Shown here: positions 826 through 60,756 of the stretch, in pieces
How positions within the stretch are numbered: position 1 is the first letter of the stretch
Layout: every line of letters begins with the position of its first letter
Assembly: GCA_044892525.1 (NCBI GenBank)
Contig: CM097885.1
Span: 27,468,001-27,532,000 of the forward strand
Source: Schmidtea polychroa
Taxonomy: Eukaryota
Direction: 5' to 3'
Length of the DNA: 64,000 bases
Program-made: the position numbers and the translations under genes
The notes under the pieces: model-generated
Database searches by the model: none
The model's input: only the letters and a program-made list of their open reading frames with translations
Told to the model about the DNA's origin: nothing

Positions 826-3800
826 TTAAGGAACTGCCCATCTCTTAAGCAATTCAATTAATCTGAGTTTCTTTGTCGTCCCGTCACTCAATTCCACCTG
901 GTGTTCTGACAAAAACTTTGATATGACAAAAGGACCTCCATACTGTAGTCCATTTTTGTCGCGATTTTGTGGTTCTTTCCGAACTAATACTTCCTCCCCC
1001 ACCGCGAAACATCGATTCGTTCTCTTCTCTGTTTCCATCCCTTTCATTCGTTTAGCTGCTTTCTCAATGTTCTCTCTTACCAATCTATGTATCTCAACTG
1101 TATCCAATGTCGTCTGAGGCAATGTTGAATGAAGGTTAATCTTCCTCCCAAAAACAATTTCAAATGGAGAAAATCCCGTCGCGCTCTGTTGTGTCACGTT
1201 GATACAAAATTCTACTCGAGGAAGTAACTCCGCCCAATTTCGCTCTCCTAGTCCACCTGCTAATGATGTTGCCAGCAAGTCTCTGACTGTCCGTATTTTT
1301 CTCTCAACTAAACCGTTAGATTGATGCTAATATGGTGAACTGAACTGTTGCGTAATACCCAGTCTTCCTAGATTTGTTTTCATAAAACCACTATCGAAGT
1401 TCTTCCCTCTGTCTGACAGACAATTTCGCGGTTTTCCGAACCGCTATATCCACTTCTCCAATATGGCTTTGAAAATCGATCTCTCGTCTTGTCTCTCCAG
1501 TGCGGTCAGACTGACCATTTTGCTAAAACGATCAATGATAACTAGCATATACTTGTACACTCCACCATTCTTCATGTGCGCTATATCAATGACCAACTGC
1601 TCTAAAAATTCTGAACTTATTATCGGCAACAATCGTTCCTTTGTCTTCTCCTGCACTATTTTCCTTCTGCAGCATATCTCACATACTCTCAAACAGTTTT
1701 GTATAGTTTCTTGCATGTTTGGCCAAAGAAATATGTTGCTCATATAGCTAATTAACTTCTTTACTCCAATGTGACACATTTCAGTATGTATTCCTTTAAC
1801 TAACGTATTTGAGTAGTCTATCGGCACCAGGATGACATCTTCTCTAATAATAAAAACCCATCTTCTAATTTTATGTTGTTATGCAAATTGAAAGGAAATT
1901 TCTTTTTATTCAAGTCATTTTTTCCTCTTCTCCCTGTAACACTCTTGTCATGTGAATGAAATCTACATCATCTTGTTGCTTTTCTAAGAGTTTTGTCATC
2001 GACTCAGTCTTCTGTAATGAGCTGATATGTCTTACTCTGGCTTTTTCTTCTTTTGCGTCTTCATGTATAGTCTGGCATTGTGCACATAACATCCCTTTAA
2101 TCCTTGATATTCCGTCCGTATTTCCATGTTCCTCTCCTTTCCTATATTGAAGATCGAAATCATATCCGGAAAGGTTGGCTAGCCAGGTTTGAAATTGCGG
2201 GCTTATCGGTTTTTTTGTGTATCTCATGAAAACCAACGCCTTGTGATCTGTTCGTACTACAAATGACTTTCCGTATAGATATTGTTTAAAATACATTACA
2301 TATTCGTGTATGGCCAGTAACTCCTTCCTAGTCACACAATAACCTTTTTCATGCGCGGTCAAGTGTCTCGACCCATATGCAATTACCACTTCAGTACCAT
2401 CTTCTTTAGTTTGACATAAAACTGCTCCGATGGCCCCAAAACTAGTGTCTGTATCCAGAATAAAGTTTCTATCCATTCTTGGGTAATCTAGAATTGGAGC
2501 TTCACACAACTTTGTTTTAAGTAATTCAAAACTATTGTTGCAATCTTCTGACCAATTAATCTTTTTCTCACAGCCGGACGTAGCTGCATGTAGGGGTTCC
2601 GCAATTTTCGCATAGTCTTTTATAAACTTCCTATAGTAATTGGTCATACCTAAAAAGGATCTTAATTGTTTGGCGCATACTGGTATTTCTGCATCTTGAA
2701 TCTCTTTAATCTTCTTGTCGTTCGTTTTTATCCCACTTGCACTTACAATGTGCCCTAGGAATGTCAATTCTTCTTTATACAGATTACATTTTTCTGGGTT
2801 AATTCTCAACCCCGCTAGTTGAATTCTTCTGAATACTTCCTCTAATCGGTTATTGTGTTCCTCTTTGTCTTTTCCATAGACAAGAATGTCGTCGAGGTAG
2901 ACAACAACACCCTTAAATAATATTCCATTCAACATTGAGTGCATCATTCTTTGAAACGTCGCAGGGGCGGTTGCTAGTCCAAAAGGAAGTCGGTTAAAAC
3001 AAAACTGTCCTTGCCTTGTACTGAAAGCCGTGACCTCTTGAATTTTCTTCGCCATTCCAGCTTGATAATATGCTTAACCTAGATCGATGGATGTGAAATA
3101 TTTTGAATCTGCCAGACAATCCAGTAGAAATCGTGTATCTGGCATTGGAAAAGATATCTTTTCAGTGATCGCATTCAACCCTCTATAGTCGACACACATC
3201 CTTATTGATCCATCTTTCTTAGCCACAATCACTAGTGGCGCGTTCCATGCACTTTTGCATTTTCTAATAACTCTCGCTTCTAATAAGTTTGTGACAAGTT
3301 CGTCAAGATTTTGTTCTAAATGCATTGGTTGTCTTCTTGGCTGTAACATTACAGGCCCACCTACTATATTCATTTCATGTTGAACAACTTTCGTAAACCC
3401 GAGATCAAACGTTGAAGCCATAAAAATACCTTTGAACTTCCGTAGCAATATGTCTAACTGTTCATTCTTCCTGTCTCCAAGCATTAATAATGCTTTCTCT
3501 TCTTGTTGTGAGTCCACATATGTCCTCCCTACTTGTGACGCTTCAATATTGTCTACCTCTACCAGTCGAATACCAAATCTCTCCATTGTATCTACACCCC
3601 CAATGAAATCTGGACGTATATCTTTGACAACTATAACATTAATAATTCTTTTTTTCCCATTCCAATCAGCTTCTATCGTCATTGCTCCTAACGGTCTTTC
3701 CATTCCCGTCGAAAATACTCCACAAAGAGAAATTGTGCTCTGCTTCAACCTCGGTTTCCCAATCTTTGTCCAACTTTTTTCACTCATAACTGATACTGAC

Positions 3801-3895
3801 GCTCCAGAGTCCCAAAGCATGTCAATCGCCGTCATGTTTATTACAATCTTACTCCACTTTCTTCTGTCTGTCGTCTCATACATCTTCTGCATCAT
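826..3895 (-). pseudogene. pol: Gypsy pol (protease, RT, RNase H, integrase) with stops/frameshifts
   Basis: Protease LWDSGAS (3074..3895), RT YLDD and RNase H LDTDTS (1910..3055), integrase HHCC/IDRFSK (1444..1827), integrase C-terminus (826..1278); in-frame stop at 3074-3076 and further breaks. Confidence 0.9.
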
Positions 3896-4245
3896 GTCTT
3901 CATTTCGCTTCTTTCTACTGATTATTGTGTCGACCTCACTGACGAAATGAAAGCAATGGGATCGTCCTTGTTTTTTGGTTTATCCGTTGATTTTTTTATC
4001 GTTTCTTCGTAATTACTGTATAAATCTTCTGTGAAATCACCATTATTTCTTTCGTGATCTTCTTCGTAAATACATGCCACTCTATTCTGATATCCATTTC
4101 TATTTTTAAGCAAAAAACAATCTCTGAATCCATGACCTTCTTTTACACAGATTAGACATTTGTCTTTCATAGGACATTCAAAACGCCGGTGCCCTTTTTC
4201 TCCACAACAAAAACACTGACCTGGTGTCAGTTTCACTGGATGAGG

Positions 4246-4845
4246 CAGTGGCGTAACTAGGGGGGGGGACATTTGTCCCCGGGCGCCAAAATTAGGGAAG
4301 CCAATTTGGAACAAAAATTAAGTAATAAATTATTCTTAAGATCTAAGAGATTAATATATTTTTTATTACTTCATTAGTTTCTTAGAATAGATGTGCGTGC
4401 ATTCAGTTATTTGCAATATTTACTTATACGTGTATATTTAGTTAGTGTATAAATAAAAACACAAAAACTTTATTATTTTAAATTTTAGTACGTTTACGTT
4501 ATAGTTAATCCATTTTTGGTCATAATACTAAAAAAAGGTAAGTGTTATAATATATATACTTTATTTATTCTCTACGTAAATAATACAAGACAAGTAGTTA
4601 CTAAATTTGTAATTTTAAAAATTACATTGATTAACCGTGTTTTTTGTTTTAAAAAATTTAGAAAAAGTATCATCATGCCTGGAAGAAAACTTAGCGGCGC
4701 TGAAAATAGAAAAAGAAAAAGACAACGAGAACAAGAGGCAAATAAATCAAAACTTAATATTTAATGTTAAACTTTATTTTGTCTTATTAAAATCTGTTAA
4801 ACCTGTTTCGTTATTCGTCATTAATATTCTTTAAAAAAATTAAAT

Positions 4846-4880
<35 letters not shown>

Positions 4881-4934
4881 GGGCGCTAATTTCTCAGTTG
4901 CCCCCAGGCGCAAGAACCTCACCGTACGCCACTG
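4246..4934 (+). mobile_element. Non-autonomous hAT deletion derivative inserted in gag
   Basis: TIRs cagtggcgta/tacgccactg; perfect 8-bp TSD ggatgagg (4238-4245, 4935-4942); internal MPGRKLSGAENRKRKR resembles the N-terminus of ZMYM1-like hAT transposases. Confidence 0.9.
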
Positions 4935-5825
4935 GGATGAGGCGAATCTCTTCCTTTGCTGTCATTAAATAATCTTCTTGCAATAACTTTAAGCGATACT
5001 GTAGGTATTCTTCTCTCTGGTTCTCATGTCTCGTATCGTCCTCTATACCGCTCATTTTCATTCTTGTCTTCATTTACAATTGGTATAAACCGACCATTAC
5101 CAGGTCTATTCCTCTCATGATTAATCTCTCGGTGTTCATCGTGTTGATGTGCAGTTGTCTTCACAATTGTTCTTTGGTCTCGTCTACCCTCGAATTTACC
5201 ATTTTTCATCACTGATGCGTAGGAGTCTCTTCTTATGGCATCAATATTGAATTTATTGCCATTCGTCATCTCGATCTTCTCCTGAATTTTTGCCATATCC
5301 CTGGCAGCTTCAAAACTTGTCACTTTCCCTGATAAGAATATTTCTTTTACTCTATCGTCTTTCGCTCTGTTTGACATAATGTCTCGAATAATCTGTTCAT
5401 CAGACATTCCAGAGCTAAATACACTTTTAACTAAACTTCTTACTCGTATTTCGAAGACTTGGAATCTTTCATCTCTCTCTTGCTGAATTTGAGCTAGTTC
5501 CACAATCTTGTTAGTAATGGTTTTTCTTACTGTAAAAGTTTCTATAAACCACTCTTTTGCCATTTCATCGGTCATCTTCGCTATTTTCGCCGCTTCCCAT
5601 AACATCGATGCCGCATCTGTCAACAAAAGATCCAATGCGTCTACTAGACTTTGATCTTCTATTCTCAGCCATTCCATAATATCCTTTAGCCAAAGTTCGG
5701 CTTCAGATCCAACTTTTCCGTCAAACTTTCTTACATTAAAATTTAACATCTCACGTGCTTGTTTTGACAAGGAATCTAACATATTCTTAGTTCCTTTCTT
5801 TTTTCCTATCGCATTGATTTCCTTG

Positions 5826-5836
5826 GCGTGGTCGCC
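5826..5836 (-). promoter_or_regulatory. Primer-binding site of Gypsy element 1, probably tRNA-Arg
   Basis: TGGCGACCACG directly after the 5' LTR, complementary to a ...CGTGGTCG-CCA tRNA 3' end (tRNA identity from memory). Confidence 0.7.
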
Positions 5837-5960
5837 AGTTATGACGTCTTCAACTTCTAAATTCATAAAATCAATAAAACAATAATAAATGCAGTTAAAC
5901 TATATTTTCCAAAAACACGCTAAAAACCATATTATTAAAACAAAACAACTTTCCATAACT
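5837..5960 (-). repeat. 5' LTR of Gypsy element 1
   Basis: Identical to 692-815; adjacent to the PBS. Confidence 0.95.
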
Positions 5961-7202
5961 TATACAACAGTAGAATGAGCCACTTTGAATGACTTCGCCG
6001 ACGAGGGAGTATTGGAACACAGTTCAAACAATAAACCTGCTCGCCAGCGAAACCTTTCTCTGAGGCTAACGAAAATGAAAAAACATAAGCGAATTACAAT
6101 AATTCAGCTTAAATAAGGTTATAATTAAATCATGCGCCATGACACGAATAATTAGATAATAATTTTGAATTGGTAAAACAACAAAATTTGTTTTCATCCC
6201 CAATTTTTGATAAAAATTAAAATTAAAGATCCGAGTGTTATAGATGGTATAAGACAACCACAGGCAGAATACGAATTTCAGGACCTAATTTTTTTGGTTA
6301 TTGAATGATGTTGTGATAAAAGTATTACTAAGAAATTTCCTTTTAATCTTGATTTAGTTTGAAGTTATATGGTAATAAGAATTTAATCCCAAATTACTAT
6401 TTGAAATTTTCGTTATTAATTTACTGTTTAACTTACGACACGAAACTTATTTACAATTTGACTACAACTAATTATTCGACCTACCATTTTACGACCTAGC
6501 CGAACGAGTATTTATAAAAGATGAAGCGTTGAGCTAAGAGACAAAATTGAAATAACCATTATCGTTAACTATACTTATCTAATAACAGAATGTCTCAATC
6601 AAGCTGTCACGACGAGGAAGAATCATACCGACAGACTATTACTCGGCTCCGAACCAGATACATTGGGTTCAAGATCCATGACTGGAACTGAGGTCTGGAT
6701 CTGGATAATTATGGTTCAGTCATACGGAGTGGCCCCGAGCCCGATGCCCCGGCGTTGGTGAAAGTAGAACCGAAGAACAATCTGTTACAGGAGGCCCGCG
6801 ACCGAGCGGCCATGGAATTGGAGGCAGCCCAAGCGCGGCTGAGGTTTATACACGAGAGGTTTATACACGACACCCTCAAAGATCAGTGTGAGGAGTTAAA
6901 ATTAAAATACTAAATTAAATTAGTTCATGATTAAAATTTGTAAAATTTTAATTGAAACTTAAATTATTTTAAGATATTAAAATTGAAATGATAATTGAAA
7001 TTTTAAAATAAAATAATTTTTAATAAAATTGAAATTCAAGTATGAATGCGATGGTATGTTGATATTTGGTTGAAATTAAAATTTAGAAAATGTCCCAAGA
7101 ATATTTGTTTATATAATCAGATTTAATGAAATATAATTTTGGATTTAATAGTCTTAGTAATTTATTTTGATGACAGAAGAATTAAATGTTATAGCTTCTA
7201 AC

Positions 7203-19118: not shown

Positions 19119-19371
19119 CTGGCGAGCAGGTTTATTGTTTGAACTGTGTTCCAATACTCCCTCGTCGGCGAAGTCATTCAAAGTGGCTCATTCTACTGTT
19201 GTATAAGTTATGGAAAGTTGTTTTGTTTTAATAATATGGTTTTTAGCGTGTTTTTGGAAAATATAGTTTAACTGCATTTATTATTGTTTTATTGATTTTA
19301 TGAATCTAGAAGTTGAAAACGTCATAACTGGCGACCACGCCAAGGAAATCAATGCGATAGGAAAAAAGAAA
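19119..19371 (+). repeat. Inverted segmental copy of 5795-6047 (flank, TSD, LTR and PBS of Gypsy element 1)
   Basis: Reverse-complement match including host flank; LTR copy at 19206-19329 with two substitutions. Confidence 0.92.
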
Positions 19372-19427
19372 ACCATTCAAATTTCCATTTTAAGTCTTAA
19401 AAACAAAATTCAATGATTTATGACATT

Positions 19428-19467
<40 letters not shown>

Positions 19468-21255
19468 TATTACCACTTAAGTTATATTTTGTTGTTCTTT
19501 CTCTATCCCGACGTATATCATCATAATGTAATACGGCTAGTATGCTATATAAAAACAGAATTGATCATTGTTTTGAACATTAACTAAAGCCTGACAGTTT
19601 TTCAGGTAATTTGGCGTTTTAATGTAACTTGAACCTAAGTAAATATCTTGATTTATATATATATGTCTGATAATTTAGTTAAAATCATAGTAACTTCTAA
19701 TATTTTATGAATTCTCCACCCACTACTTTGTTGAGTGTATTTCTCCAACTTTTCTTTTAATTTTTCAATTCCATCATTAATAAATGAAGATGACATTGTA
19801 ATTGCTTTATTCGACAAACACCATTTTTTAATTTCACCATCCTCTTTGATAAACTCTGCACAAAGTCCAAATTGGATTTTTACTGTCCCCATTCGTTGAA
19901 TATGATCTTCTATTTCTTTGATGAGACAATCTGGAACAACAATGTCAGGAGAATTAATTGCAGTTACATCGCTTGTCAATTCAACACGAGAACCATTTAA
20001 GTCAGACTCCCGACGTGGACACAATTGTATGTTAGAGACTCCATTTCCGTAAAATATTGACTTTCGTTTTATGGTGCCAGAGATTTGTCTAACTATATTT
20101 ATAATTAATATTAAACAACTTAAATAACATAACTTGTAACATATTCTTTAATCTGCTTAGGATCGTATGATGTATTCATTTTCGATTGTACTATAAAAAA
20201 TTAATAATTGTTAATAGTAGAAGGAGCATTACTTTCAGCGATCATCCTGCTCTTCGTTTCTTCGAATCTTCTAAGATGGTGTCCGTGTTGTCGTACAAAC
20301 ATTAACCACCTACCTGGTGATATAATGAGACATTCCGGACATATGTAACCCGATAAGGTAGAGTCATTTATCTTGAAATATGATGATGTAACTGATTTAC
20401 AGTTCTCCACATCTTCATGACTTTCGGCAATACAAAATTTATATAAACTCATCCGTTCACTAAAAGAAAATAATCATTAATATTAGATAGAGAATAAAAA
20501 ATTATTCACTTATATAAGTTAAATTAAAAGTTTAAATGACACACATTTGAAAAGTTACTGCTTATATATTACACATGATTAAATTCTGACCAATCAAAAT
20601 CAAGGAAGGGGTAGGAAAAATAAATGCATTACGTTGCAGTATTTTAAAACTTCAATATATTTTAAAACACATTTTGACGCTAAAGTTTACTTATTTAACA
20701 TTTTCATAATAATTTAATAAAAATAATGTGATGAACCCACAAAGTAATATCATTTTTCATCAAATTGCAAAACAGTAATAACGTTTTCATAAATATTACA
20801 ACAAAGTAGTAACATATTTCAGAAAATTTCAACAAAGTTGTAAAATATTTATCAAATTGTAACTAAAATAATAAAATAATTGCAACAAAGTAATAAAATA
20901 ATGATGTTAATTGGGACAAATCAATACATTATTTCGAAGACGGACAACAAATTAAAAAGAATATTGTAATAAATTGTGAAGTCTTTCAGTAAATTACATC
21001 AAAGTAATAACATATTTTGGAAATATTTCACCAGATGTAAAATATTTAAGCAAATTGCTATAAGATTATAAAAATATTGCAACAAAGTAATAAAATAATA
21101 CAAAATTTTAAACACTAGATCAATCCATTTTATAGAAAATTAATTTTTATCTCTATAATATATGAATAAATATCCAAGGAAATTACGTGTAACAATGTAT
21201 ATTCAGAATTTAATTCTCTACAACATGGCGCAAATACAATTTCAGTTTGGTGCTT

Positions 21256-21720
21256 TGTGTAATGCACACATGTTTTTACAATAAATTTGTATTTTTTCGC
21301 GCGGTTAACGTTATTTTCTTGGATTTTTATTCATATAATATATAGATAAAATTTAATTTTCTATAAAATAGCTTAATTAAAAATTATGTATATTGTTTAG
21401 TGTGTAATACACACATTTTTTACAATAAATTTGTAATTTTCATACATTTAACCTAATTTTCTTAGGATTTTTTTCATATCATATATAAATAAAATTTAAT
21501 ATTCTATAAAAATAACTTGATTAAAATTTATGTATCTTGATTTCTGTGTAATACACACATGTTTTTACAATAAATTTGTATTTTTCATACATTTAACCTA
21601 ATTTCCTTGAAATTTTATTCATATAATATATAGATAAAATTTAATTTTCTATAAATTGGATTGGTTAAAAATTATGTATCTTGTTTTGTGTGTAATACAC
21701 ACATGTTTTTTAATTTTCTA
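21256..21720. repeat. ~145-bp tandem repeat, about 3 units
   Basis: Motif tgtgtaatacacacatgttttt recurs near 21256, 21401, 21545 and 21690. Confidence 0.85.
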
Positions 21721-22309
21721 TAAAATGGATTGATCTAGAGTTTAAAATGTTGTATTATTTTATTACTTTGTTGCAATATTTTTATAATCTTATAACAATT
21801 TGCTTAAATATTTTACATCTGGTGAAATATTTCCGAAATATGTTATTACTTTGTTGTAATTTACTGAAAGACTTCGCAATTTATTACAATATTCTTTTTA
21901 ATTTGTTGTCCGTCTTCGAAATAATGTATTGATTTGTCCCAATTAACATCATTATTTTATTACTTTGTTGCAATATTTTTATTATTTTAGTTACAATTTG
22001 ATAAATATTTTACAACTTTGTTGAAATTTTCTGAAATATGTTACTACTTTGTTGTAATATTTTCTAATCTTGTTACAATTTGCTTAAATATTTTACAACT
22101 GTTGAAAATTTATCTGAAATATGTTATTACTTTGTTACAATTTTTATGAAAATGTTATTACTGTCTTGCAATTTGATGAAAAATGATATTACTTTGTGGG
22201 TTCATCACATTATTTTTATTAAATTATTATGAAAATGTTAAATAAGTCAACTTTAGCGTCAAAATGTGTTTTAAAATATATTGAAGTTTTAAAATACTGC
22301 AACGTAATG

Positions 22310-22425
22310 CTTTTATTTTTCCTACCCCTTCCTTGATTTTGATTGGTCAGAATATATTTATTTTTCCTACCCCCTTCCTTGATTTTGATTGGTCAGAATT
22401 TAATCATGTGTAATATATAAGCAGT
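22310..22425 (+). promoter_or_regulatory. Putative Pol II promoter (duplicated ATTGG/CCAAT box and TATATAAG)
   Basis: ttttgattggtcaga occurs twice (local duplication), followed by tatataag upstream of the 83-aa ORF and PolB; mirrored at ~20560-20600. Confidence 0.4.
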
Positions 22426-22529
22426 AACTTTTCAAATGTGTGTCATTTAAACTTTTAATTTAACTTATATAAGTGAATAATTTTTTATTCTCTATCTAAT
22501 ATTAATGATTATTTTCTTTTAGTGAACGG

Positions 22530-22781
22530 ATGAGTTTATATAAATTTTGTATTGCCGAAAGTCATGAAGATGTGGAGAACTGTAAATCAGTTACATCATC
22601 ATATTTCAAGATAAATGACTCAACCTTATCGGGTTACATATGTCCGGAATGTCTCATTATATCACCAGGTAGGTGGTTAATGTTTGTACGACAACACGGA
22701 CACCATCTTAGAAGATTCGAAGAAACGAAGAGCAGGATGATCGCTAAAAGTAATGCTCCTTCTACTATTAACAATTATTAA
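22530..22781 (+). CDS. Small Cys/His-containing protein upstream of PolB, unknown function (mirror copy at 20201..20452)
   Basis: 83-aa ORF with YICPEC and HGHH, open in both arms. Confidence 0.45.
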   Translation: MSLYKFCIAESHEDVENCKSVTSSYFKINDSTLSGYICPECLIISPGRWLMFVRQHGHHLRRFEETKSRMIAKSNAPSTINNY

Positions 22782-22957
22782 TTTTTTATAGTACAATCGA
22801 AAATGAATACATCATACGATCCTAAGCAGATTAAAGAATATGTTACAAGTTATGTTATTTAAGTTGTTTAATATTAATTATAAATATAGTTAGACAAAAC
22901 TCTGGCACCATAAAACGAAAGTCAATATTTTACGGAAATGGAGACTCTAACATACAA

Positions 22958-25900
22958 TTGTGTCCACGTCGGGAGTCTGACTTAAATGATTCTCGTGTTG
23001 AATTAACAAGCGATGTATCTGCAATTAATTCTCCTGACATTGTTGTTCCAGATTGTCTCATCAAAGAAATAGAAGATCATATTCAACGAATGGGGACAGT
23101 AAAAATCCAATTTGGACTTTGTGCAGAGTTTATCAAAGAGGATGGTGAAATTAAAAAATGGTGTTTGTCGAATAAAGCAATTACAATGTCATCTTCATTT
23201 ATTAATGATGGAATTGAAAAATTAAAAGAAAAGTTGGAGAAATACACTCAACAAAGTAGTGGGTGGAGAATTCATAAAATATTTGAAGTTACTATGATTT
23301 TAACTAAATTATCAGACATAATACATGTATCTGGTAAGTTTATTTACATTATATATATATATATATATATAAATATAAACAAGATATTTACTTAGGTTCA
23401 AGTTACATTAAAACGCCAAATTACCTGAAAAACTGTCAGGCTTTAGTTAATGTTCAAAACAATGATCAATTCTGTTTTTTATATAGCATACTAGCCGTAT
23501 TACATTATGATGATATACGTCGGGATAGAGAAGGAACAACAAAATATAACTTAAGTGGTAATATATATGTATTTAGAGTTAAAATGGAAATCAGATTGGT
23601 TTCCAATGAAGTTGGTTAACATTTGCCAATTTGAAGCAATGAATCCAAATCTAGCGATCAATGTTCTCAAATATAATAAAGATCCAATTAAACAAAAAAC
23701 TAATGATATTTTCAAGAATCCGTTCGTTGACTTGGTATATAGAAGTACTTCGACGGGATCTCAGATATATCTCCTATTGATTGAAGAAGGTAATATTTCT
23801 TTTAATCATTAAAAATATTAACTAAATTTTAGAATTAAATTATCATTTTTTGGCTGTAACTAATCTCGATCGACTGCTGAATTACAGAGATAGAGTAGAA
23901 GGAGTCAGAATCCAATCACATTGGTGTCATACATGTCTTCATGGGTTTCAAAAACGTCCTGCTTTTGAAAGACATATAGGTCTTTGTAGGAAGAATGTGG
24001 AGCGTACGACTCTATACTCAATGCCAGAGAATAAATATATCGAATTTAAAGACTGGAGTAAAACTATAAAACAGCAGTTTGTTGTCTACGCGGACTTTGA
24101 ATCAATATTACCTCTAGACGACAAACACTTCCAAAAACATGAGCCGATTGCATCTGAATTTGTGCTTCTTCATCAAGGTTGTCCGATCCGAAATGAAACA
24201 TTTGTTGGGAAAAACTGTATCATTCAGTTCATATAAGCATTGGATGATATAGCTACAGACATAGTTTATCCGTGGTATAAAATTAATGGATCAAAGGAAA
24301 TGATGGAACTCACGTGGGAACAGCAGGAAGAATTCACGACTCAAACTCATTGCTACCTTTGTAAAAAGATTATCAATATACCTGTTCGAGATCATGATCA
24401 TTTTATTGGTCAATATCTGTAAGCAGCGTGTCAAGATTGTAATTTGGCTAGAATAATCAATCCGTCTTTACCTGTTGCAATTGGAAAATTCCCCGATTGG
24501 AATTTAATTGTTATTCCTCAATCAACAGATAAGTTTTTCACACTTACAGCGACATCGAAAAGCAGAAGAATTAGATTCATTGATTCTTTACAATTTTTAA
24601 ATAGCAGCTTGGCAAATTTATCAAAAAACTTGCCACGTCTTCCACTTACTTCAAAGATTTTCAATTCTCATCTAATAACTGGTAAAGGCATATTTCCTTA
24701 TGATATTGCTACGTCAATGGATGTTTTACAGTCAATAACAGAATTACCATCGATTTGGGAGGGAGTTAGTCAAGAAGATTATATACATGCAAATCAAATC
24801 TGGCGACAATACAACTGTGAGACACTGCTAGATTACATGCTCGTATATCTCAAGTTGGATGTTTTTCTGTTGGCCGATGTTTTTGAAGCTTTCAGAGAAA
24901 AACATTTGACGAAGATGGACTTGAGGCTCTATCGTTTGTTTCCATACCCGGATTAAGTTGGGCATCAGCTATTAAACAGTTACCTGAACCGGTAGAACTT
25001 ATTCAAGATCCAGAGCTTTACCGTTTATTTGAAGCTGGTATTCGTGGTGGAATGACATTTATCAACAAACATCATGTTGAAGCTGATGAATCAACACAAA
25101 TGTCAAACCTAGATGTTAATAATTTATATGGATGGGCGCTGTCGCAAAAACTTCCTGTTGGTGAATTTAGATGGATAAATGATCAGACTGAAATGAATGG
25201 TATTGTTGAAAGATGTGCAAATGGGGATGAGTTTGATTGAGATCGTGGATATGTTCTAGAGGTTGACATCGTCATTCCTGTTAGTATACAAGATAAGTTA
25301 GATGATTTACCTATAGTTCCTGAGCTTTGTTATCCACCTGGTAGTAAAGTTGAAAAGCTGTTGTTAACTCATGAGCCTAAGAAAAACTATGTAGTTAATG
25401 GTAGAGTTTTGACTGAATGGTTGAGTTATGGCGCAAAAGTCACAAAAGTTAATTGTGCTGTAGAATTCAAGCAAGTAGCTATTTTCAAAGGCTATATTTA
25501 TTACAATACTCAAATGAGAGCAGCTAGTACAGATTCATTTCAGCGAGATTATTATAAGTTAAAGAACAACAGTTTATACGGTAAAACCGTGGAAAACCTT
25601 AAGAAACGTATAAATTTGAGATTATGCAGCAAAAGCAAAAGATTGATAACTTATTGTAGTAATCCTATGTTTCGTCGTAGCATCAAGATTGCGGATGATC
25701 TCATTGCTGTTATACTTGATAAGGAAATGGTGTGTTTAGATAGACCAATGTATATTGGACAAACCGTACTTGATTTATCTAAACTTCGCATGTACCAGTT
25801 TCAATATAAAGAACTACAGAGTTATAGAGAAGAATTCAATTGTCAAATTAATATCGTAGCCGGTGACACAGATTCCTTCTTTTTAGAGTGTAAAAATGTT

Positions 25901-26389
25901 GATTTACGCTTACAACTGTATCCAAAAATGGTTGTCGATGGGCTCCTAGATACTTCAAATTATCCAGTGACTGATCCATTGTTCTCAGATAAAATTTGTT
26001 CGGTAATCGGGAAACTCAAGGATGAGAATAAAGGAAATCAATATAAAGAATGGGTGTTTCTTCGACCCAAGTGCTACTCACTCCAAGGCGATAAAAACAC
26101 TCTAAAAGCCAAAGGAATAAGACTTACAAACTCTAATCTTACACATGAAGCCTATAAAAAAGTGTATACTGATGGTGGAACAGTGAGCATCCCACAAAAA
26201 AGAATAGGAAGTGTCAATCATCAGTTGTATACTTTCATGACCGAAAAACGAGCTCTCCAATGTTTGGATGATAAAAGGTATTGGTACAATTGTAATGAAA
26301 GTTATGCCTACGGTCACTATAAGATTCGTCAAATGCATATTGCAACTGCTATGTCTAGAAATGAATGCAAATCGAAACAAGCACTTTAA
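22958..26389 (+). pseudogene. polB: Polinton/Maverick-type protein-primed family B DNA polymerase, intron-containing, decayed
   Basis: SSGW, GSSYI..P, zinc finger, VYADFES exonuclease, CYLC..RDHDH (endonuclease VII-like), FIDSLQF, KGIFPY, IRGG, LDVNNLYG, KLKNNSLYGKT, GDTDS, RPKCYS; GT-AG introns at 23334-23395, 23558-23576, 23790-23832; several stops and frameshifts. Confidence 0.92.
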
Positions 26390-29300
26390 CAATTAAATTT
26401 ATGTGAATAATAAAATATATATTGTGAATTGTTTGACTTAGTTAATTAAAATGTGTTTTATCATTTAATTATTCATTTGTCCAATTAATTTAGATAATTA
26501 GTTTCAAGTAAGAAATATTATTTTTGTGTTTATTTTATTTATTTATTTATTTTTTCCGAAAAATTAATATCCAGTTTATCTAAAATTAACTCAGCGTTTT
26601 ATTTTATAATAAATTAAATAATTTCTAATTAAAATTTTATTCAAATTAAATAATTACTAATTAAAATTTTATTCAGATTGAAATATTATTGTTATAATTT
26701 ACCTCTTGTTAGAATATAATGTAAATGTAAAATTAAAAAAAAATAATAATAATAATAAATAAATAAATAAATAATACTAAAATAAAAACATAATAAAATA
26801 ATTAATTAAGAAAATTAAAAAAAAATAATAATAATAATTAAATAGCGTAAGTAATTAAAATAAAATATTAATAAACTAATAAATTAATTAAATGTAATAA
26901 ATTAAAATAAAACATAATAAAATAATTAATTAATAAAATTAAAAAGAAAAAAAAATTAAAAAGAAGTAATTAAATAAAATGTTAATTTAAAAAATAAATG
27001 ATTCGATTAGTCTATATTTGATCTTGATATTCCATGACCTTGAAAGTGCGCTGGAGTCCTTACTATTCACTACTAGGTATAAAAAGGCAAAGTGAAAAAA
27101 GATTCTGGACCCACACAATCTGAAGCTTTTTGATGTTTAGACATCGCCATAAAGTACCAAGAGGCATGTAACATAAGACAACTTATGCGTTAAAAGTATT
27201 TGCAATTAAGCAGCTTTAAAAAGAACAGTGAATTTTAGGCAAAATTTGTTAATAAAAATTAATTTAATATTGAAACTTATTGTATATCTTGACAAATATA
27301 GAATTACATATTGTATGTGCATGTCTTTTATTGTCAATTGGGGACTTTTCGATTACCCGGATTAGTCTTTATCCTAACTATCTCCATTCCCAATCGGTCC
27401 GGATAATCGAGGTTCTACTAGATTTTATAAATTTGGCAAATATTTTTTGGTATTTTTTTCAAATTTCACCACTGATTTCTTTTTCATTGACATTGTATTA
27501 ATTAAAAAGCTTGAATACTATGAATCAGTTGTTCATTGTCAAGCTTTCTAAAAAATAAAGAGAAATAAATTTTAAAGTGCCAATCGATCAAACTCATTGA
27601 TTATTGATCTATGGTATTGATTATCTATATATTGATTTTTTCAAAATTTCAATGGTAATGGTATAGACTTATTTTTGATAAAGTTTTCCTTTGACTTCTT
27701 GAATGACACACACAAACATAAACAAACAAACAAACACACACACATATATATAAATATATATATCAGAGCCGGGTGCTATTTTTGTAATTTGCAAATAAAT
27801 TTTGTGAAAATCAATCTAAAATGCAATATTGCGTTTCATATTGGAAAATGATTACTAATTAAAAATCAAAACAAATCTCGACAACATATATTTCACAATT
27901 AAAATTCGACCAAACACAATTATTATTATTAAACGAAATGACAGGATTACTATTTGTACAATTGATTCCATTTTCGATCACAGTAAATTTAACGCGCTTG
28001 CTGCAATGAATGCAGAACCCGCCCGAGCATCTTTCTTGGTTTTATAAAATGATTCCGAAACGTAGGTGTTGCTTAAAATGGTCACCTAGTCACAACAAAG
28101 CACACATTAAAAATAATCTGATTTTGGATGGTTATTTTTTTCTTAATATTTCAATGCAAGAAAATTTTAAAATAAACTGTAATCATCCCCATTTGCCATT
28201 GATTTATATTAGAAATAATCAATATATTTTTATAAATAATTAGAGATTACGAACCAATAGCAATGAGTTCTAATCTCTATATGGTTTTTATAGTTTATCT
28301 TGAAGATACAAAAATGTTGAGGTCAGCAACGATAATAGTGACGTCATCCTCTATATTTTAGTCGGAATAATATTTTAAAAATTTCAAACTCCCGCGCTAT
28401 AGTGAGATAAAAGAAAAAAGTAAAATTCAGTTTAAATCAATATTTGCACATTTTAATCAATAATTAACCATTTAAATCAATACTTGAATTTCTATTTTGC
28501 ACTTAAAAATACTTATTTGCGGCTTGACCTTGAAATGGGGGGTGTAGAGGTCTCTGTTGATTACCAGCGCGCGATAACTAATGGTGGCGTAAGGAGCTCA
28601 CATCTACCTACCTACCCTTTTTATTGATTTTATATTTTAAAAAAAATATCGATTGTTATTATTAAAACAAAAATTGAAAAGAAAATAAAATAAAATCAAT
28701 TATTATTCAATGCAAAAATAATTAATAAAAATTACTATTGGAAAAAATTTTAAAAAAATATTTTTTTAAAGTAAAATTTGAACTTGAAATAGGTTTTGAA
28801 ATTTGACCTTGGGATTGTTATGTATGGTTGTGGGCAGATGTGAGCTTTTTGACTCACTATCAGTTATCGCGCACCTACTCCCTTTGCACAGCCTACTAGC
28901 GATAGATTATTTCAAATTCGCCCTAAAATTTCCCGAAGTGCAATATTGATTTTGAGTGCAAAATGTACTTTTATAGGCCCATTTTTTATTTTCTAACTGA
29001 AATGTGGGTTATCAGTATGAGTTATCGCGTTTATAATTTTAACATGTGTATATTGATTAAAAAGTGCTATTATTGATTTTATGTGAAAAAAAACTATTAT
29101 TGATTTTTAGTGAAAAAAATGCTATTATTGACTTTTAGGAGAAAAAAGTGCAAAATGAAAATTATAACTAAAAATGTGACTATAGTGTGCTTTTAATATT
29201 TTAACCAGGCATCCTTCATAAAAAGATGTATTCTATGATGTCACACAATAATATATATAAAAATTGCAAAAAAGTTTTATTTGAGTTACCTTTTTCGCGT

Positions 29301-30029
29301 TTTTAAGAAATATTTTTAGAACATTCGGAACCCGGTACATTTAGTCGTGACATCCTTAACAAAATAGTTGCATCTCGATTTAACTAAAAAGATTCTTTAA
29401 AAAAATTCTCGAAAGGCTTTTTGGTTCTCCCAGAAATTAAGAAAGTATAAAACCAATCGATAATTCTCAAAAATTCGGCTATGCCCGAATGTATTATGAA
29501 TTATCGTGGATTTTGATCGGTGAGTTATCGATATCTCAGCATACTCCCAGCACTATGCAAAGGGCTAATATTGATTTTATAGTGCAGAAAGTGGAATTTT
29601 TATAATTTCGGTTCCTCGCCCTACAAAATATAGATTCTTGAGATAAAGATATGTTGTTCTCCCCTTTGGCTTTGGCCTTTAATAACTCGTGTTTAAATTT
29701 GCAAATGGCATGAGGCTATCAAACAGAGGGAAAAACAGAATTGAAGGTAATAATGGATAATTATTTTATATAAAGAAATAAAAAAATTGAGATAGAGATT
29801 AAAAAACCCCACAAAAAGTCAAAGATGCCTGGACAAAATCAATAAATGCGCCCCGACTGCACTATATATATATATATATATATGCGATTGATACATGAGC
29901 ATAATCAGCTGATGATAATTGGATATGAATTATGGGCTAGTATAACTCTTGTTCCACTGACTTAGGGAGTAGCAGGAGGCAAATTTATGTTTATTGTCAG
30001 TTTTATAAATTAAATATGAAAATATTAGT

Positions 30030-30208
30030 TATAAATAAATAAAATAATTAAATAACAATTACCTATAATAATAATAATAAATAATAAAAATAATAACAAA
30101 TAAAAAATAATAATAATAAATAATAAATAATAATATTAATAGAAATAATAATAAATAATAATGATAAAAATTAAATAACAATTATAATAATAATTAATAA
30201 AAATAATA

Positions 30209-30253
<45 letters not shown>

Positions 30254-30990
30254 TAAAAATAAATAATAATAATAAAAAATAATAATAATAAATAAAAATA
30301 ATAATTAATAATAATAATAATAAATAATAAAAATAATAATAATAAAAATAAATAATAATAATAAAAAATAATAATAATAAATAAAATAATAATTATTAAT
30401 AATAATAAATAATAATAAATAATAAAAATAATTAAAAATAATAACAAATAAAAAATAATAATAATAAATAATAATAATTAATAGAAATAATAATGATAAA
30501 AATTAAATAACAATTATAATAATAATTAATAAAAATAATAAATAATAATAATAAATAATAAAAATAAATAATAATAATAAAAAATAATAATAATAAATAA
30601 AAATAATAATTAATAATAATAATAATAAATAATAAAAATAATAATAATAAAAATAAATAATAATAATAAAAAATAAAAATAATAAATAAAAATAATAATA
30701 ATAATAATAAATAATAAAAATAAATAATAATAATAAAAAATAATAATAATAATAATAAATAAAAATAATAATTAATAATAAATAAAAAACAATAATAATA
30801 ATAAATAATAAAAATAATTAAAAATAATAATAATAATAATAAAAACAAATAATAATAATAAATAAAATAACAATAATTATAATAATAATAATTAATCATA
30901 ATAAAAAATAATAAATTATAATAATAAATTATAATAATAAATAAAAATAATTAATAATAATTAAATAGTAATAAAATTGTCAATATTAAT
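30030..30990. repeat. Degenerate (AAT)n low-complexity satellite
   Basis: Almost only A/T, built of aat/aaat units. Confidence 0.95.
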
Positions 30991-32498
30991 CAATAAAAAT
31001 TAATCGCGAAATTATTAATTATTAATCGAAACGATAAATTGACGTGATTGAAATTTAAATCGAAAATAGAAAAAAAATAAATTAATATTCAAAAGAAGAT
31101 TGTTTACTCAGTTGAATATTAAGTTTCCATTTGATATTTTTGCATCGAGTTTCTCCACTCATTTGCGGTTTTTCATTGGAGCAAATTTGTCGACTGCATT
31201 AGGAGAATTGAAGAGACTAAATTGAAGAAATGCATATCAATGAAACAGCCTGATGTTTGTAGTATTATTTAAAATATTTAACAGTTAAAAAGAAATTTAA
31301 GATTTTTTTTCTAAACTTTGAATGAAACGATTTAAAATTTTTTTACTAATGTCCTTCACAAGTGCTATTGAAAGTGTGATTCATAAGATGATTGTCGTTT
31401 GAACCATTCTACCCATTAATCAATAATTATTTTTCTGCGAAATTTGATCGATTTACAATAAAGATCTGGATTAAATTCCAAAGCAGAATTTGATTATTAC
31501 TAATTCCTGATATTCAGAAAGGGTTTTATAATGTCGTAGTGCATATGTTAAATAATTTAAATAATACTATTAAAATCAGGCAGTTCATTGAATTGATTTT
31601 ACAAAACCGAATTCATTTCTCACAGAAAATAAATCTTATAAAATAGTCAAGAAATTCATAAGAAATATTTTATTATTATTTATCGATTGAATTTTATAAT
31701 AATAATAATAATTATTTTTGAAATCGATTTATTGCATTTATATTCAATTAATTATTTGTTAATTTAATTTAACTCGTATAATTTGCTAAGAATTTATAGT
31801 AGAATAAAGATTCACTGTTTCCAGTGTGAATGGAGTCAGAAATAATTTATATAAGATTATTGGCATTGTAAAATTGTTTTCATTACCTCAATGAAGATTA
31901 AATTTGGAAATTAATTCACCTGAAAAAGTTCAAATTTGTTATTGTCGATAACAAATTTCAAAACTGTTTAAATGAAAATCAAAAAAATATAATAAATCGG
32001 AAAGTATTTTATATGAAGCGCTGGTGGTTAAATCACAATTCTAAACAGTTAACATTCAATTAGCAACGGATTTATTGAGAGTATTTAATTAACTTATTAA
32101 CTTGTAACATTATTGTTTCCGTTTATTTTCTTAATTAAATTTTCCCCCTTTTTTCTTATTGATATAATTAATTCTTATTTCTTTTATTATCAAAATTTAT
32201 TACTATTTTTAAATAACCTCGTTTATATTATATATAAATATAATTATTATAATTAATTTTCCTGTAATTTATAATGATGAATTCTCAGAATATTTTACTT
32301 ACTAAATAATAAAAAAAAAATTCGTAATGGTTTAAAAAACGAAAGAAACTTGAAATTTACAAACAAGATTTTTGCGCAAATTGCACAAATTTTGTCATTA
32401 GAATGAAATAAAGTTGAAATAAATGAATTGAAAATAATTAATAATTTCAAAGACGTACACCCTAATATTATTGATTTGCTTAATCAAAATCGACCTAC

Positions 32499-33693: not shown

Positions 33694-33987
33694 TTGAACA
33701 AAATTGTAATTAGGATTTGTAGTGTATTATTTTTGTTATTATTGTGTTAATTATATTAAAAAAAAATAAAAAAACTATATAGTAAATTATTTCTATAGAG
33801 AATTACAAAATTTAATAAAATATAAAAATCAATACGACATTTACAAGTCGACAGACAATCAACGAACGGAATTCACATAAAATTAAACAATTAACGGAGT
33901 GGAATTCTTATTTAGAATACGAGAAAAATTGAAATTATAGATAACAGAATAAGATATTCATAAGTTTAAATCAAATAGATTGTTAGA

Positions 33988-34177
33988 GTTAGGGTTAGGT
34001 TAGGGTTAGGTTAGGGTTAGGTTAGGGTTAGGTTAGGGTTAGGTTAGGGTTAGGTTAGGGTTAGGTTAGGGTTTGGTTAGGGTTAGGTTAGGGTTAGGTT
34101 AGGGTTAGGTTAGGGTTAGGTTAGGGTTAGGTTAGGGTTAGGTTAGGGTTAGGTTAGGGTTAGGGTTAGGGGTTAGG
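33988..34177 (+). repeat. Interstitial telomere-like array, 11-bp unit TTAGGGTTAGG
   Basis: Alternating TTAGGG and TTAGG over about 190 bp. Confidence 0.93.
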
Positions 34178-46516: not shown

Positions 46517-47088
46517 TACTATGAAGTCCGAATACAAAAGCGATGATAAATTGTGTGGATTTGTGCGATGTTTAACAGCACTCGCACATGTCCCAGTTGA
46601 TGATGATGGTGAATCATTCGACTTGCTAGCTAAACGGATGCATAAACACGAAAAAAGATGAACCGACCGTGGATCAAGAGTTCATGGATGAATCTTCCGT
46701 GAATGAAAAGTTTGCATGCCATTCTGGTTTACGTTGGAAACAGCATAAGGGATATAATGATGGTCATCTGTAACCCACCAATGATATATTGAGAATAGTG
46801 AAGGTATTGATAAATGACAAAGAATTCACATCCGACCATACATTCTCTGCGAACTAGTGACATCCAGATTTTTTTGAGTTAAATTAGATTTATTTTTTCT
46901 AAAATTATTTTATTTTAAGTACATACACACCCATGATTTGTTATTTTAAACCTTAGTTGTTAACATGAATTTAATTGATTATTTCAAACAATCAAATTAT
47001 TAAATAATTTTATTTTTATTTTATTGTGGCCTTTCATTAGCGATTTTAATAAGAATTTTTCATAATTCTTATTTAATTATTTTTTATT

Positions 47089-47678
47089 ATTTTTCGAGCC
47101 ACTACATTCCTAATTTATCTGATTACGGTTTTTGTATGAAAATACAACCAATAATCATTCTTCATTTTTGATATTTTTAATTCGCTCTTTCATTTACTAT
47201 TCTCATTCTTTTGAGTCCACAGGTTTTTCGAATGCGTTGTTTCTCACTTAACTATATCATTGTAACTAATTGCGTTTATCAATTTTATTATACTTGTTTA
47301 TTTATCCTCAATGTGTTGTGTACTTTACTTTGTACTGTTTTATGTATAATCATATATTTTGATTCGATTTGGTGCAGTTTCCTTGCTATATATTTACAAC
47401 GCATTTTCGGCTCTAGCCCAACAAAATGGTTAGATTGTTGTTATATTGACGTGGGATTTTGGATTTCCTTTGAATTGGGTTTTCATTTTCTGTCTTTTGA
47501 GTCAATGTTGATAGGACATTTATTTGATCACGTACTGTAATGCTTAATTTGGGCGAATGTCTCGATGGCCCTGTTCTTGTATTTCAACACTACAACTATA
47601 CCAAGTTTCAGTCCAATAGTTGCATAACAGAAATCGTAATGATGTAGCACAACATAAAATGAAAAGGTTATATGCCAA
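47089..47678. repeat. Left copy of ~590-bp direct repeat flanking the Polinton
   Basis: Near-identical to 60757-61342; ends exactly at the agtagt terminus. Confidence 0.92.
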
Positions 47679-48572
47679 AGTAGTGTGTTTATATCCCTAA
47701 CCAAAACAGCCCTCCCAACAAAACATACCTCCATTACGCCTAAACCATTAGAAAAACAATCTAAAACTTATACTTTTATAGTATTTTAACCCTATATTTT
47801 TGAAAACAACCACCCTTAATGACTCTAAACCCTCAAACTCAAAAGCTTCAAACTAAAAACATAAAGAGAATAGAAAAGAAAATGGTATTATGAAAAAGTT
47901 GGAGGGCTATTTTGGTTAGGGATATAAACACACTACTTGAGGATGTCAACTAGCAACTTGCTATTTGACTAATTTGACTCATTAAAAAATAAATATAAAA
48001 ACATCATAAAAAATCAAAACAGGGTTATACAAAAGTTAAATATTTTATAAATCTTGAAGAATAAAAAATTTTATGAAATAGTAAAACTGCTCTGAGAGGA
48101 CAGTGGTTTTTTTTTTTTCACTGTCCTCTCAACAGTTTTTTTGATCCGGATCATTTTTTTATTCAACCTCTTTCGTTTATCAAATCTCTTCCAATATACA
48201 AGCTGGCCAGACTTATACATCAGAATCAATTCGATCTTGAAAGTACAAATGAATTCGAAAGCGAATCCGAAAGAGGTCCGAAAACAACTGAGAAAGGGAT
48301 CGATCCGGGTGTGTTCGAAAGACTGGTGGCGATAATTACCGATTCGCCATCACACCCGTTTCAATATATATTTTTTTCATATTTATGTTTAAAAATTAAT
48401 TAATTAATAAAAAAATAAAATAAATAAAATAAAATATACAACTACTTTATAAATCTAAGATACCCACACCATTTTCAATATTATTTTCAAATTTTTAATA
48501 TTATTTTATGTTGAAAAAAAACTAACCTCAGATGTGATTTGAACCGCTATCTATTTGAACCACTGTGCCAGT

Positions 48573-48842
48573 CTAGCCCACTGCGCTATCTTGCTTTGGA
48601 TTTTTGTCATTTTTACAACTATAAATAATCGATTCAAGTTCTTTAACTCTTTCCTGTAATTGTTTCATTTTCTTTAACCTTATCTCAGCAACTTCTACAG
48701 CTTTCATGTAAAAATGTCGATACTTTTCATTCTCTACCATCAACTCTTTGATGTATTCTAATGGTTCTTCTTCTCTTCTTTTCATTCTCTTATGTTTAAC
48801 TTCATTCAATTCATTTCTCATTCTTTCAATTAAGTCAGTCAT
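48573..48842 (-). CDS. Small coiled-coil protein of the Polinton, unknown function
   Basis: 89-aa charged helical ORF with aaaATG context, divergent from the capsid gene. Confidence 0.55.
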   Translation of the reverse strand: MTDLIERMRNELNEVKHKRMKRREEEPLEYIKELMVENEKYRHFYMKAVEVAEIRLKKMKQLQERVKELESIIYSCKNDKNPKQDSAVG

Positions 48843-48889
48843 TTTATAAATATTTTTTTTATTGGATATATTAATTTTAATATATAAAA

Positions 48890-50176
48890 ATGAATAATAT
48901 AAAAATTCAAGAAAAAAATAAATTAAATCTTGATTATAATAAAGAATTTACTCATGAAATCAAGAAAAATGATGTACTTAAAATATCCCCAACTTCAGGA
49001 TCTATAGCAAACTTAAATCGTAGGGGTGATATAGTTTTTCAATCTCTTCAAACATCAAACCCAATAGATATTTGTAATGCCAAATTATATTATAAAATTG
49101 AATTAGAAATTGAAGCAAACAAAGATATAACCCTAGAAAATAATTTCTTTCCAAATTTATTCTCCAACATGAGATTAAAACTAGGATCATCAGAAATTGT
49201 AACTGTTTTACATCCAGGAGTATATTCTACAATGTTAAATTTTATTTTGACTGGTTGTGATTATAAAAATGAATATGGTAAATTAACAGGTTGGATTCCT
49301 GATGTTAATAAAGGGGATTTAGATAAAGATGGTTTAGATATAAATTATGCTTACTATAAAAGAGCTGAACTTTATAAATCTAAAAAATTTGAAGGTTATT
49401 TTGAATTAAAACACTTGTTTGGATTCCTTCAAAACTATAATCGTATACTTCATAATGTTTTTATAGAATTAGTTTGTAATAGAGTAGAAGGTGATAAAAG
49501 ATTGTTCTATGGAGATAAGGATACAACAGCTAAATTAAAAATATCAACACTTGAATTGCATATACCTGAATGGCCATTAAATCCACATTCTGAAATCAAA
49601 CTCCTTGAAAGATTAAATTCCAACAAGTCTATAAATGTAAATTATTTAAATAGAATCTGTAGTGAATTTAGTATGACAGAGGGTTCAACATATTCTATAA
49701 AGGTAGCAAATTTAGCATACCGACCAAGATATATCTTGATTGGATTCAAAGAAGTAGATTCATCTTTCCAAAAAAATAACAACCTATTTATTCAAAAGAT
49801 TGAAAATGATAATTTAAAAACAATCCAAATTCAATTAAATAGTTCTTATTATCCAATAAATAGAATGGAATTTAATATTGAAAATAATGAAAACATATTC
49901 CCATATCTAAATTATATTGGAACATGTTATGATTTCAAAGTTGAACCACAATTAAGTTTAGAAGATTTCAAAAATTTATATTCTATATTTTGTATAAATG
50001 TATCAGATCAAGATGATAGATTAGCCATAAATAATGTTGATGTTACACTTCATGTAACAAAGGATTCTAATTTCAAAGCTAAAGTATATACATTAATATT
50101 AGAAGAAAAGAAAATAGAAATGAAATTATATGGTGGAAAGATTTCAATTATTGAAAATGTTAGGGGAGATTCTTAA
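48890..50176 (+). CDS. Major capsid protein (double jelly-roll, Polinton PY/hexon-like)
   Basis: Intact 428 aa, beta-rich; NNFFPNLFSNMRL, PRYILIGF, YSIFCINVS motifs; genomic context. Confidence 0.8.
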   Translation: MNNIKIQEKNKLNLDYNKEFTHEIKKNDVLKISPTSGSIANLNRRGDIVFQSLQTSNPIDICNAKLYYKIELEIEANKDITLENNFFPNLFSNMRLKLGSSEIVTVLHPGVYSTMLNFILTGCDYKNEYGKLTGWIPDVNKGDLDKDGLDINYAYYKRAELYKSKKFEGYFELKHLFGFLQNYNRILHNVFIELVCNRVEGDKRLFYGDKDTTAKLKISTLELHIPEWPLNPHSEIKLLERLNSNKSINVNYLNRICSEFSMTEGSTYSIKVANLAYRPRYILIGFKEVDSSFQKNNNLFIQKIENDNLKTIQIQLNSSYYPINRMEFNIENNENIFPYLNYIGTCYDFKVEPQLSLEDFKNLYSIFCINVSDQDDRLAINNVDVTLHVTKDSNFKAKVYTLILEEKKIEMKLYGGKISIIENVRGDS

Positions 50177-50193
50177 TATTTTAACATTTTAAA

Positions 50194-52418: not shown

Positions 52419-52433
52419 TTTATTTATTTAAAA

Positions 52434-53027: not shown

Positions 53028-53049
53028 TACCATTTTTGATACCATTAAA

Positions 53050-53916: not shown

Positions 53917-53938
53917 ATACAAAGTTATAAAATATAAA

Positions 53939-59481: not shown

Positions 59482-59592
59482 AATTATAAATATATAAAAT
59501 GGATGCATTTTTAAAAAAAGTAGATCAGGTTGCTATAGTTGCTTAAATTAATTGTCGACATTTTATTATTAAAAAATTAAATATCGTTGTTT

Positions 59593-60752: not shown

Positions 60753-60756
60753 TAAT

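Follow-up and report, generated by a model that had tools for sequence, protein, structure and literature searches.

Introns in the polymerase gene of a probable palindromic, polymerase-only Polinton derivative of Schmidtea polychroa

Polintons, or Mavericks (eupolintoviruses, Alpha-type adintoviruses), are reportedly also covered by Kapitonov and Jurka in 2006. In adenovirus E2B, the terminal protein and the polymerase are made by splicing and come from separate messages. Snap-back defective viral genomes, in which one end is duplicated, include cases among DNA viruses.

As defined in the part of PMC10748475 available to us, Polintons carry pPolB, an integrase and virion genes, and have inverted repeats of 100–1,500 bp and duplications of 5–8 bp. 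The order terminal protein-vOTU-pPolB, which is also the layout predicted here, is given in the accessible text of 10.1101/2024.03.18.585575. According to the portion of PMC8097293 that could be consulted, no introns were found in intact vertebrate Polintons. Introner insertions in dinoflagellate eupolintoviral elements are described in the sections seen of PMC12166617, and group I introns in those of PMC12220804. Neither a palindromic PolB-only form nor a spliced PolB is mentioned in the accessible parts of PMC6431247, PMC8502044, PMC8532177 and 10.64898/2025.12.11.693146, and a search of the openly accessible literature found no palindromic PolB-only Polinton and no spliced animal Polinton PolB. 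PMC8532177 reports that Polintons become de-repressed upon PIWI knockdown.

In this study, a PolB gene of S. polychroa was analysed that the initial annotation had described as a distinct, intronised PolB-centred element or a once-domesticated polymerase. The first description proved apt: the locus is probably a damaged member of a palindromic family derived from Polintons, with PolB as its only gene, that likely depends on host splicing, copies itself with its own polymerase and borrows an integrase.

The window copy and its palindromic family

The window, meaning the whole stretch of 64,000 nt that was analysed, belongs to an AT-rich 781-Mb assembly with four large contigs. Besides this element, it has LTR retrotransposons and hAT elements as well as a distant second Polinton. 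The parts of the element at the level of the arms are as follows.

19119..19371, minus strand: 253-bp piece that marks the left-arm break, 99% match to 5795-6047
19372..27074, no strand: remains of a palindromic element of ~13 kb with only the polymerase (inverted arms, sibling-arm match, family ends and target duplications)
19372..21200, minus strand: truncated left arm with the 5′ part of a second PolB gene; intron-1 donor deleted
19396..19473, minus strand: left-arm intron 2, 78 nt, GT..AG, with a different 3′ variant
21200..21710, no strand: non-palindromic centre of ~144-bp tandem repeats; its DNA also occurs in a sister palindrome family
27051..27074, minus strand: right terminus of the element (AGTAGTGAATAG... 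inwards)

The right arm of the window copy is complete; the left arm is cut at about 19372 and the left end is absent. The 253-bp piece at the break is the end region of an LTR retrotransposon located at 826-6047. The left arm ends about 24 nt past its intron 2 and no longer has the 5′ splice site of intron 1. The 78-nt GT..AG segment in this arm, which had been cited as support for the boundaries of intron 2, does exist, and the support is weaker than proposed, since its 3′ end and the start of the following exon differ from those of the right arm (the same variant occurs in sibling L022), the intron-1 donor is lost and the arm is cut. In the right arm, the PolB gene is interrupted by stops at 24234, 24420 and 25238, by frameshifts near 24890 and after the first acceptor, and by a deletion near 24477. 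This arm is also a mosaic, with 23396-23557 and 24530-26389 nearest to different subfamilies, which points to recombination between dispersed copies.

Other features were observed elsewhere in the window. The second Polinton (47679-60752) has a capsid gene, a PLA2-like/integrase gene, an ATPase gene and the C-terminal fragment of a PolB gene. Its end bears a mini-palindrome of 259 bp, and a hAT element is inserted at 56213-58123; it is flanked by a 594-bp direct repeat (47085-47678 and 60753-61342), and its terminal 18-mer occurs 433 times in the genome. An alternating TTAGG/TTAGGG telomere-like array with an 11-bp unit lies at 33980-34170, internal to the chromosome, and about 1 kb of nearly pure A/T (GC 2%) at 30000-31000.

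A search with a C-terminal piece of PolB gave 13,797 candidates, 108 of which were scored; these were 96–97% identical, had mostly 870-aa open frames and lay in inverted pairs. The PolB gene was 95–99% identical among dispersed copies, and the exact terminal 24-mer was found 210 times in the genome. On contig C1, at least 86 ends were listed, among which 37 pairs had a median length of 13.0 kb. The family is estimated at about 100 copies. Intact copies, the recovery of which had been proposed with the initial annotation, are palindromes of ~13 kb with AGTAGT ends and PolB as the only gene: each arm of ~6 kb has one outward-facing PolB gene and an AGTAGT terminus, and the centre is a short repeat-rich loop. 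All six elements obtained in separate stretches were palindromes with arms 99.1–99.98% identical and ends AGTAGTGAATAG...CTATTCACTACT. In some palindrome centres, those of the sister family described below included, an inward-facing pair of AGTAGTATGATTGG motifs was observed (L073:9141, L074:794, L077:8205-9410); this motif is terminal in a different complete Polinton family (L165-L168, L175/L176).

The absence of an adjoining capsid or integrase gene, noted previously for this copy, holds for every sibling examined. Open reading frames of at least 90 codons in the centres of the six elements were only PolB exons, frames overlapping these and spurious frames in repeats; integrase, ATPase, protease and major and minor capsid genes were absent from the six whole centres and the outer arms. 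Matches to ATPase, protease and capsid genes appeared only outside one terminus, in the Polinton hosting the inserted element. Among 10 copies that seemed to be single, 7 showed a second arm, and none had integrase or capsid genes inside the ends.

In 26 of 28 elements, the left and right flanks are unrelated apart from direct 6-bp target duplications (20/20 from paired exact ends on C1, two of them with common flanks; 5/6; 1/1; 0/1). They were missing in two elements, and one element had inverted flanks. The latter, together with the near-identity of the arms, could be taken to mean that the palindromes are assembly artefacts made by fold-back reads around a single-arm element. This is highly improbable given the direct duplications, the asymmetric centres and the arm-specific differences, including intron 2 of the window copy. 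Equally present are short palindromic derivatives of 5.6–7.5 kb, which still have target duplications. Two internally deleted palindromes of 5.6 kb with the same flanks represent a segmental duplicate (G000:C1 250.9 and 251.3 Mb; L137-L140).

The element was compared with Polintons on these grounds. The two share a protein-primed PolB linked to terminal protein and vOTU (for PF03175, E = 1.2e-32 in sibling L078), a 6-bp duplication, a size near 13 kb and the AGTAG ends seen in complete Polintons of this genome. In contrast, the palindrome lacks integrase, ATPase, protease and capsid genes, and its inverted repeat measures ~6 kb instead of 100–1,500 bp; the repeat accounts for almost the entire element and, as the polymerase gene lies within it, the element has two copies of that gene. 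The element does not belong to the Polintons in the full sense, having neither integrase nor virion genes, and would work like a Polinton satellite.

Comparison of L078 with six other copies gave pN/pS of 0.18–0.28, indicating that PolB was under purifying selection while the family spread; among near-identical copies the ratio was 0.17–1.81, based on too few changes for use. Host-type introns and purifying selection would also suit a domesticated host polymerase gene or its remnant. The probability of such an origin is close to nil, because the elements number about 100, are dispersed and near-identical, and have fresh target duplications; two have inserted inside other Polintons. A single fixed locus without element ends was not what was observed, and domestication is refuted at the level of the family. 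The two copies inside complete Polintons (L091:9825 with L083:430, and L153:6996) lie near an integrase start in one case and in a penton-like gene in the other.

Over 2,696 aligned columns, the two arms of one element differed by 0–2 substitutions and arms of different elements, six in all, by 1–96; 34 variants were private to both arms of one element and 5 to one arm. In the young pair L047/L059, the elements differed from each other at 1–3 positions. Identity of the arms is not absolute, since those of the window copy differ at intron 2. Such likeness might result from intrachromosomal gene conversion, the element being an internally deleted Polinton with real introns, overgrown repeats and no hairpin stage. 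The differing intron 2 of the window's arms fits this explanation, as do the copies being mosaics of subfamily segments, from which frequent recombination follows. However, young (L047/L059) and divergent copies were alike in showing 0–2 substitutions between arms, and the short derivatives combine the palindromic form with target duplications as well. We therefore regard gene conversion as an improbable account of the likeness between arms.

Introns of the PolB gene

The initial annotation had placed three GT-AG segments at 23334-23395, 23558-23576 and 23790-23832, and both their coordinates and their splice ends were confirmed. The count of three had to be raised to six, because an upstream frame at 22530-22749 was homologous to the N-termini of the uninterrupted PolBs P0005 (E = 1e-9), P0011 and P0027; the gene therefore begins upstream of 22958, its start being about 430 nt 5′ of that position, with three further phase-1 GT-AG segments there. 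All of its parts, listed below, are on the plus strand, and all six segments are phase 1.

22473..22522, plus strand: predicted intron inside the start codon (A/GT..AG/TG in 43/44 arms), 50 nt
22523..22749, plus strand: exon, N-terminal Cys/His-rich region (PolB N-terminal homology; frameshifted just past the acceptor here)
22750..22791, plus strand: predicted intron, 42 nt, phase 1 (GT..AG in 43/44 arms; open on retention in 0/44)
22792..22848, plus strand: predicted 57-nt exon (57 nt in 43/43)
22849..22889, plus strand: predicted intron, 41 nt, phase 1 (GT..AG in 43/43)
22890..23333, plus strand: exon of the terminal-protein (LF/PAD-like) domain, matching residues 2-125 of the folded homologue fragment
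23334..23395, plus strand: intron 1, 62 nt, GT..AG, at the terminal-protein/vOTU boundary
23396..23557, plus strand: exon carrying QFCF (23467), the predicted Cys box of the vOTU active site
23558..23576, plus strand: intron 2, GT..AG, shortened to 19 nt
23577..23789, plus strand: exon, middle of the vOTU domain
23790..23832, plus strand: intron 3, 43 nt, GT..AG, just 5′ of NYHF (23838), which holds the predicted catalytic His of the vOTU
23833..26389, plus strand: last exon with EndoVII-like insertion, exonuclease and polymerase domains, broken here

In siblings, the frame of the last exon is open over about 867–870 codons. The segments recur in homologous copies. In 44 distinct arms of the palindrome family, GT..AG was kept in 44/44 for intron 1, 42/42 for intron 2 and 44/44 for intron 3, and lengths varied from 46 to 87 nt for intron 1 (8 distinct lengths) and from 15 to 70 nt, mostly 41–65 nt, for intron 2 (22 distinct lengths), with intron 3 at 42–43 nt. 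The exon between introns 1 and 2 was 162 nt in 42/42 arms (all 44 in a second count) and that between introns 2 and 3 was 213 nt in 41/42. Such retention of GT..AG in introns of variable length between exons of near-constant length is far beyond chance. The 19-nt intron 2 of the window is a shortened, atypical variant and is probably too short for splicing.

The exons, with X placed at the junctions, were colinear with 47 long uninterrupted homologues from metagenome assemblies, the best of which were 54–56% identical (P0011, P0009). The alignment was gapless at junction 1 and had gaps of 1–2 residues near junctions 2 and 3, where some homologues showed gaps likewise. Removal of the three segments thus joins the exons in frame, as had been claimed, in the sense of colinearity with homologues; the window copy itself, with its stops, deletion and frameshift, is not open. 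With conserved GT..AG ends, a restored frame and insertion relative to homologues, which is clear for introns 1–3 and less so for the three 5′ introns in their variable region, the segments have the properties of spliceosomal (U2-type) introns. These results indicate that introns 1–3 are real introns.

For the 5′ region, no other in-frame Met lay near the start-codon intron in 43/44 arms. The 57-nt exon is symmetric, so that a single 140-nt intron (22750-22889) would likewise be in frame, and homology does not separate the one-intron and two-intron models. Five introns were compared pairwise: 8 of the 10 pairs scored at shuffle level, and two AT-rich pairs at 3/300 and 4/300. By this comparison, the five do not appear to be copies of one another.

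A predicted fold was obtained for a fragment of the L070 homologue (pLDDT 93), onto which the window exons map at 48–60% identity. Residues 11-119 resembled the LF/PAD domain of Y-family polymerases (Z 8.3, a middling score; rmsd 2.5, 92 aligned) and residues 133-264 resembled OTU proteases (Z up to 6.8, likewise middling; rmsd 3.5, 105 aligned). Foldseek gave no match at E ≤ 0.001, a search of the PDB with the P0005 sequence was uninformative, and no relative of P0005 was found in a viral contig collection. Intron 1 marks the boundary of terminal protein and vOTU, intron 2 is within the vOTU, and intron 3 is directly 5′ of the invariant His; the invariant Cys is encoded two exons earlier. Retention of intron 3 would, on the model, separate the predicted vOTU Cys from the His. 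As introns 1–3 split the terminal-protein/vOTU region, splicing would be needed for an active polyprotein.

Spliced RNA across the junctions was sought in contigs of four sequencing runs aligned to one sibling copy; run X1 is presumed to be RNA. One X1 contig starts at the acceptor of intron 3 and has a 13-nt loose end that is the end of the preceding exon, the short side of this exon-exon contig being 15 nt. Splicing was thus seen once, for intron 3 only, in one contig of a presumed-RNA run. In other X1 and X2 contigs, introns 1 and 3 were present unspliced, and no joints at introns were among those listed for the contigs of the four runs on this copy.

When retained, intron 1 leaves the frame open in 30/44 arms, intron 2 in 10/42 and intron 3 in 0/44, so introns 1 and 2 could be read through in some copies. 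The stop-free intron 1 and the unspliced X1 and X2 contigs would be expected if the segments were AT-rich insertions that inactivate or lengthen a passenger PolB, the element being copied by a helper polymerase. This is very unlikely, since there are six independent phase-1 GT..AG segments with both ends conserved, retention is never open for three of the five tested, purifying selection acts downstream, and the exon-exon contig joins the exons flanking intron 3.

Relatives, origin and proposed copying of the element

In the complete metagenomic relative L070, PolB is a single frame of 1,304 codons adjoined by integrase, ATPase and capsid-like genes. L070:11330-11806 encodes a TATA-binding protein (PF00352, E = 1.7e-18). 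A quick tree of 57 rows placed the intron-bearing PolB as sister to metagenomic P0004/P0005 (SH-aLRT 98). A phylogenetic comparison with the open reading frame at 59593-60752 had been suggested earlier; this frame can be placed on a long branch, with 26% identity to P0009, and says little because it is only the C-terminal fragment of a very distant PolB.

A sister palindrome family (L073/L074, L075/L076, L098/L099, L100) is also PolB-only and is without introns 1–3, its PolB being one frame of 1,214–1,331 codons across these intron sites. It is very young, with 36/36 scored copies ~100% identical. Its PolB is near-identical to that of the complete Polinton L095/L096, and both start with AGTAGGTAG. 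Because PolB and ends match, the sister family is a fold-back product of the PolB-bearing end of a Polinton; L073, L075 and L098, compared with L095/L096, thus show one end of a putative helper in palindromic form. The two palindrome families have common centre DNA (76–98%), and their PolBs are 58% identical and belong to different clades.

No complete Polinton with the intron-bearing PolB was found in the 10 apparently single copies, nor was such a parent among the best-scoring complete elements recovered by MCP, PolB and integrase matches, which were at most 63% identical. Several complete families in the genome start with AGTAG, one of them with AGTAGTGAATA like the intron-bearing family; candidate helpers therefore exist. 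The integrase is likely supplied in trans by complete Polintons, as suggested by target duplications around an element with no integrase of its own. An inverted duplication of ~35 kb, comprising the ATPase-integrase-capsid half of a Polinton and its flank, was observed at L169-L172 (G000:C3 ~24.23-24.27 Mb), with another Polinton in its middle and ends that have 11 nt in common with those of the intron-bearing family.

The element is likely copied in the following way. The structure seen in its DNA is the start: one outward-facing PolB per arm, AGTAGT ends and a repeat-rich centre. Host splicing, for which one junction in one contig was observed, would remove six introns of mostly 41–65 nt, creating the start codon and yielding a ~1,235-aa protein that unites terminal protein, vOTU protease and polymerase. 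By analogy to the Polinton and adenovirus model, the terminal protein would prime synthesis at either end, and the displaced strand would fold into a long hairpin, on which copying or repair would keep the arms alike. The retroviral-type integrase of an AGTAG-ended complete Polinton, as putative donor, would then insert the palindrome with the 6-bp duplication seen in the genome. As in the sister family, the PolB-bearing end of a complete Polinton would have been duplicated by folding back to give the intron-bearing family, and the half with the integrase and capsid genes would have been lost. The six introns were likely gained in this lineage during mobility. By analogy to adenoviruses, which use separate messages for this, the position of intron 1 may allow one gene to yield either free terminal protein or the full polymerase. 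Taken as a whole, a capsid-less, self-copying hairpin replicon that kept the polymerase, was duplicated by fold-back, gained six introns while spreading and uses splicing as an on-switch is a tentative reading.

Three known systems resemble parts of this scheme. Adenovirus E2B likewise has a protein-primed polymerase dependent on host splicing, whereas the introns of the palindrome, of only ~41–65 nt, interrupt the coding domains of a single polyprotein. In snap-back (hairpin) defective viral genomes, as described in the available part of PMC6140465, one end is also duplicated into a long inverted repeat and a helper is needed; the palindrome differs in being integrated, inherited dsDNA that encodes an apparently functional polymerase. 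Dinoflagellate introners are also spliceosomal-type introns inside Polinton-like elements, and, in the sections seen of PMC12166617, are copies of mobile families inserted mostly after integration. Unlike these, the palindrome introns are unrelated among the five compared, fixed across the family and spread with the element. This is also different from vertebrate Polintons, which are intronless in the portion consulted of PMC8097293.

Core genes of animal Polintons are described as intronless, and searches for such elements usually require open frames together with integrase and capsid genes. These searches would overlook or wrongly annotate a spliced palindrome that has only the polymerase. 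Six introns in a young multi-copy element with uninterrupted relatives make a compact test case for intron gain, and palindromes with identical arms bear on the proposed, unproven fold-back replication model of Polintons. If the hairpin-replicon reading is true, this family would be a datable record, in some 100 copies, of how introns were gained and how Polintons replicate by strand displacement in an animal.
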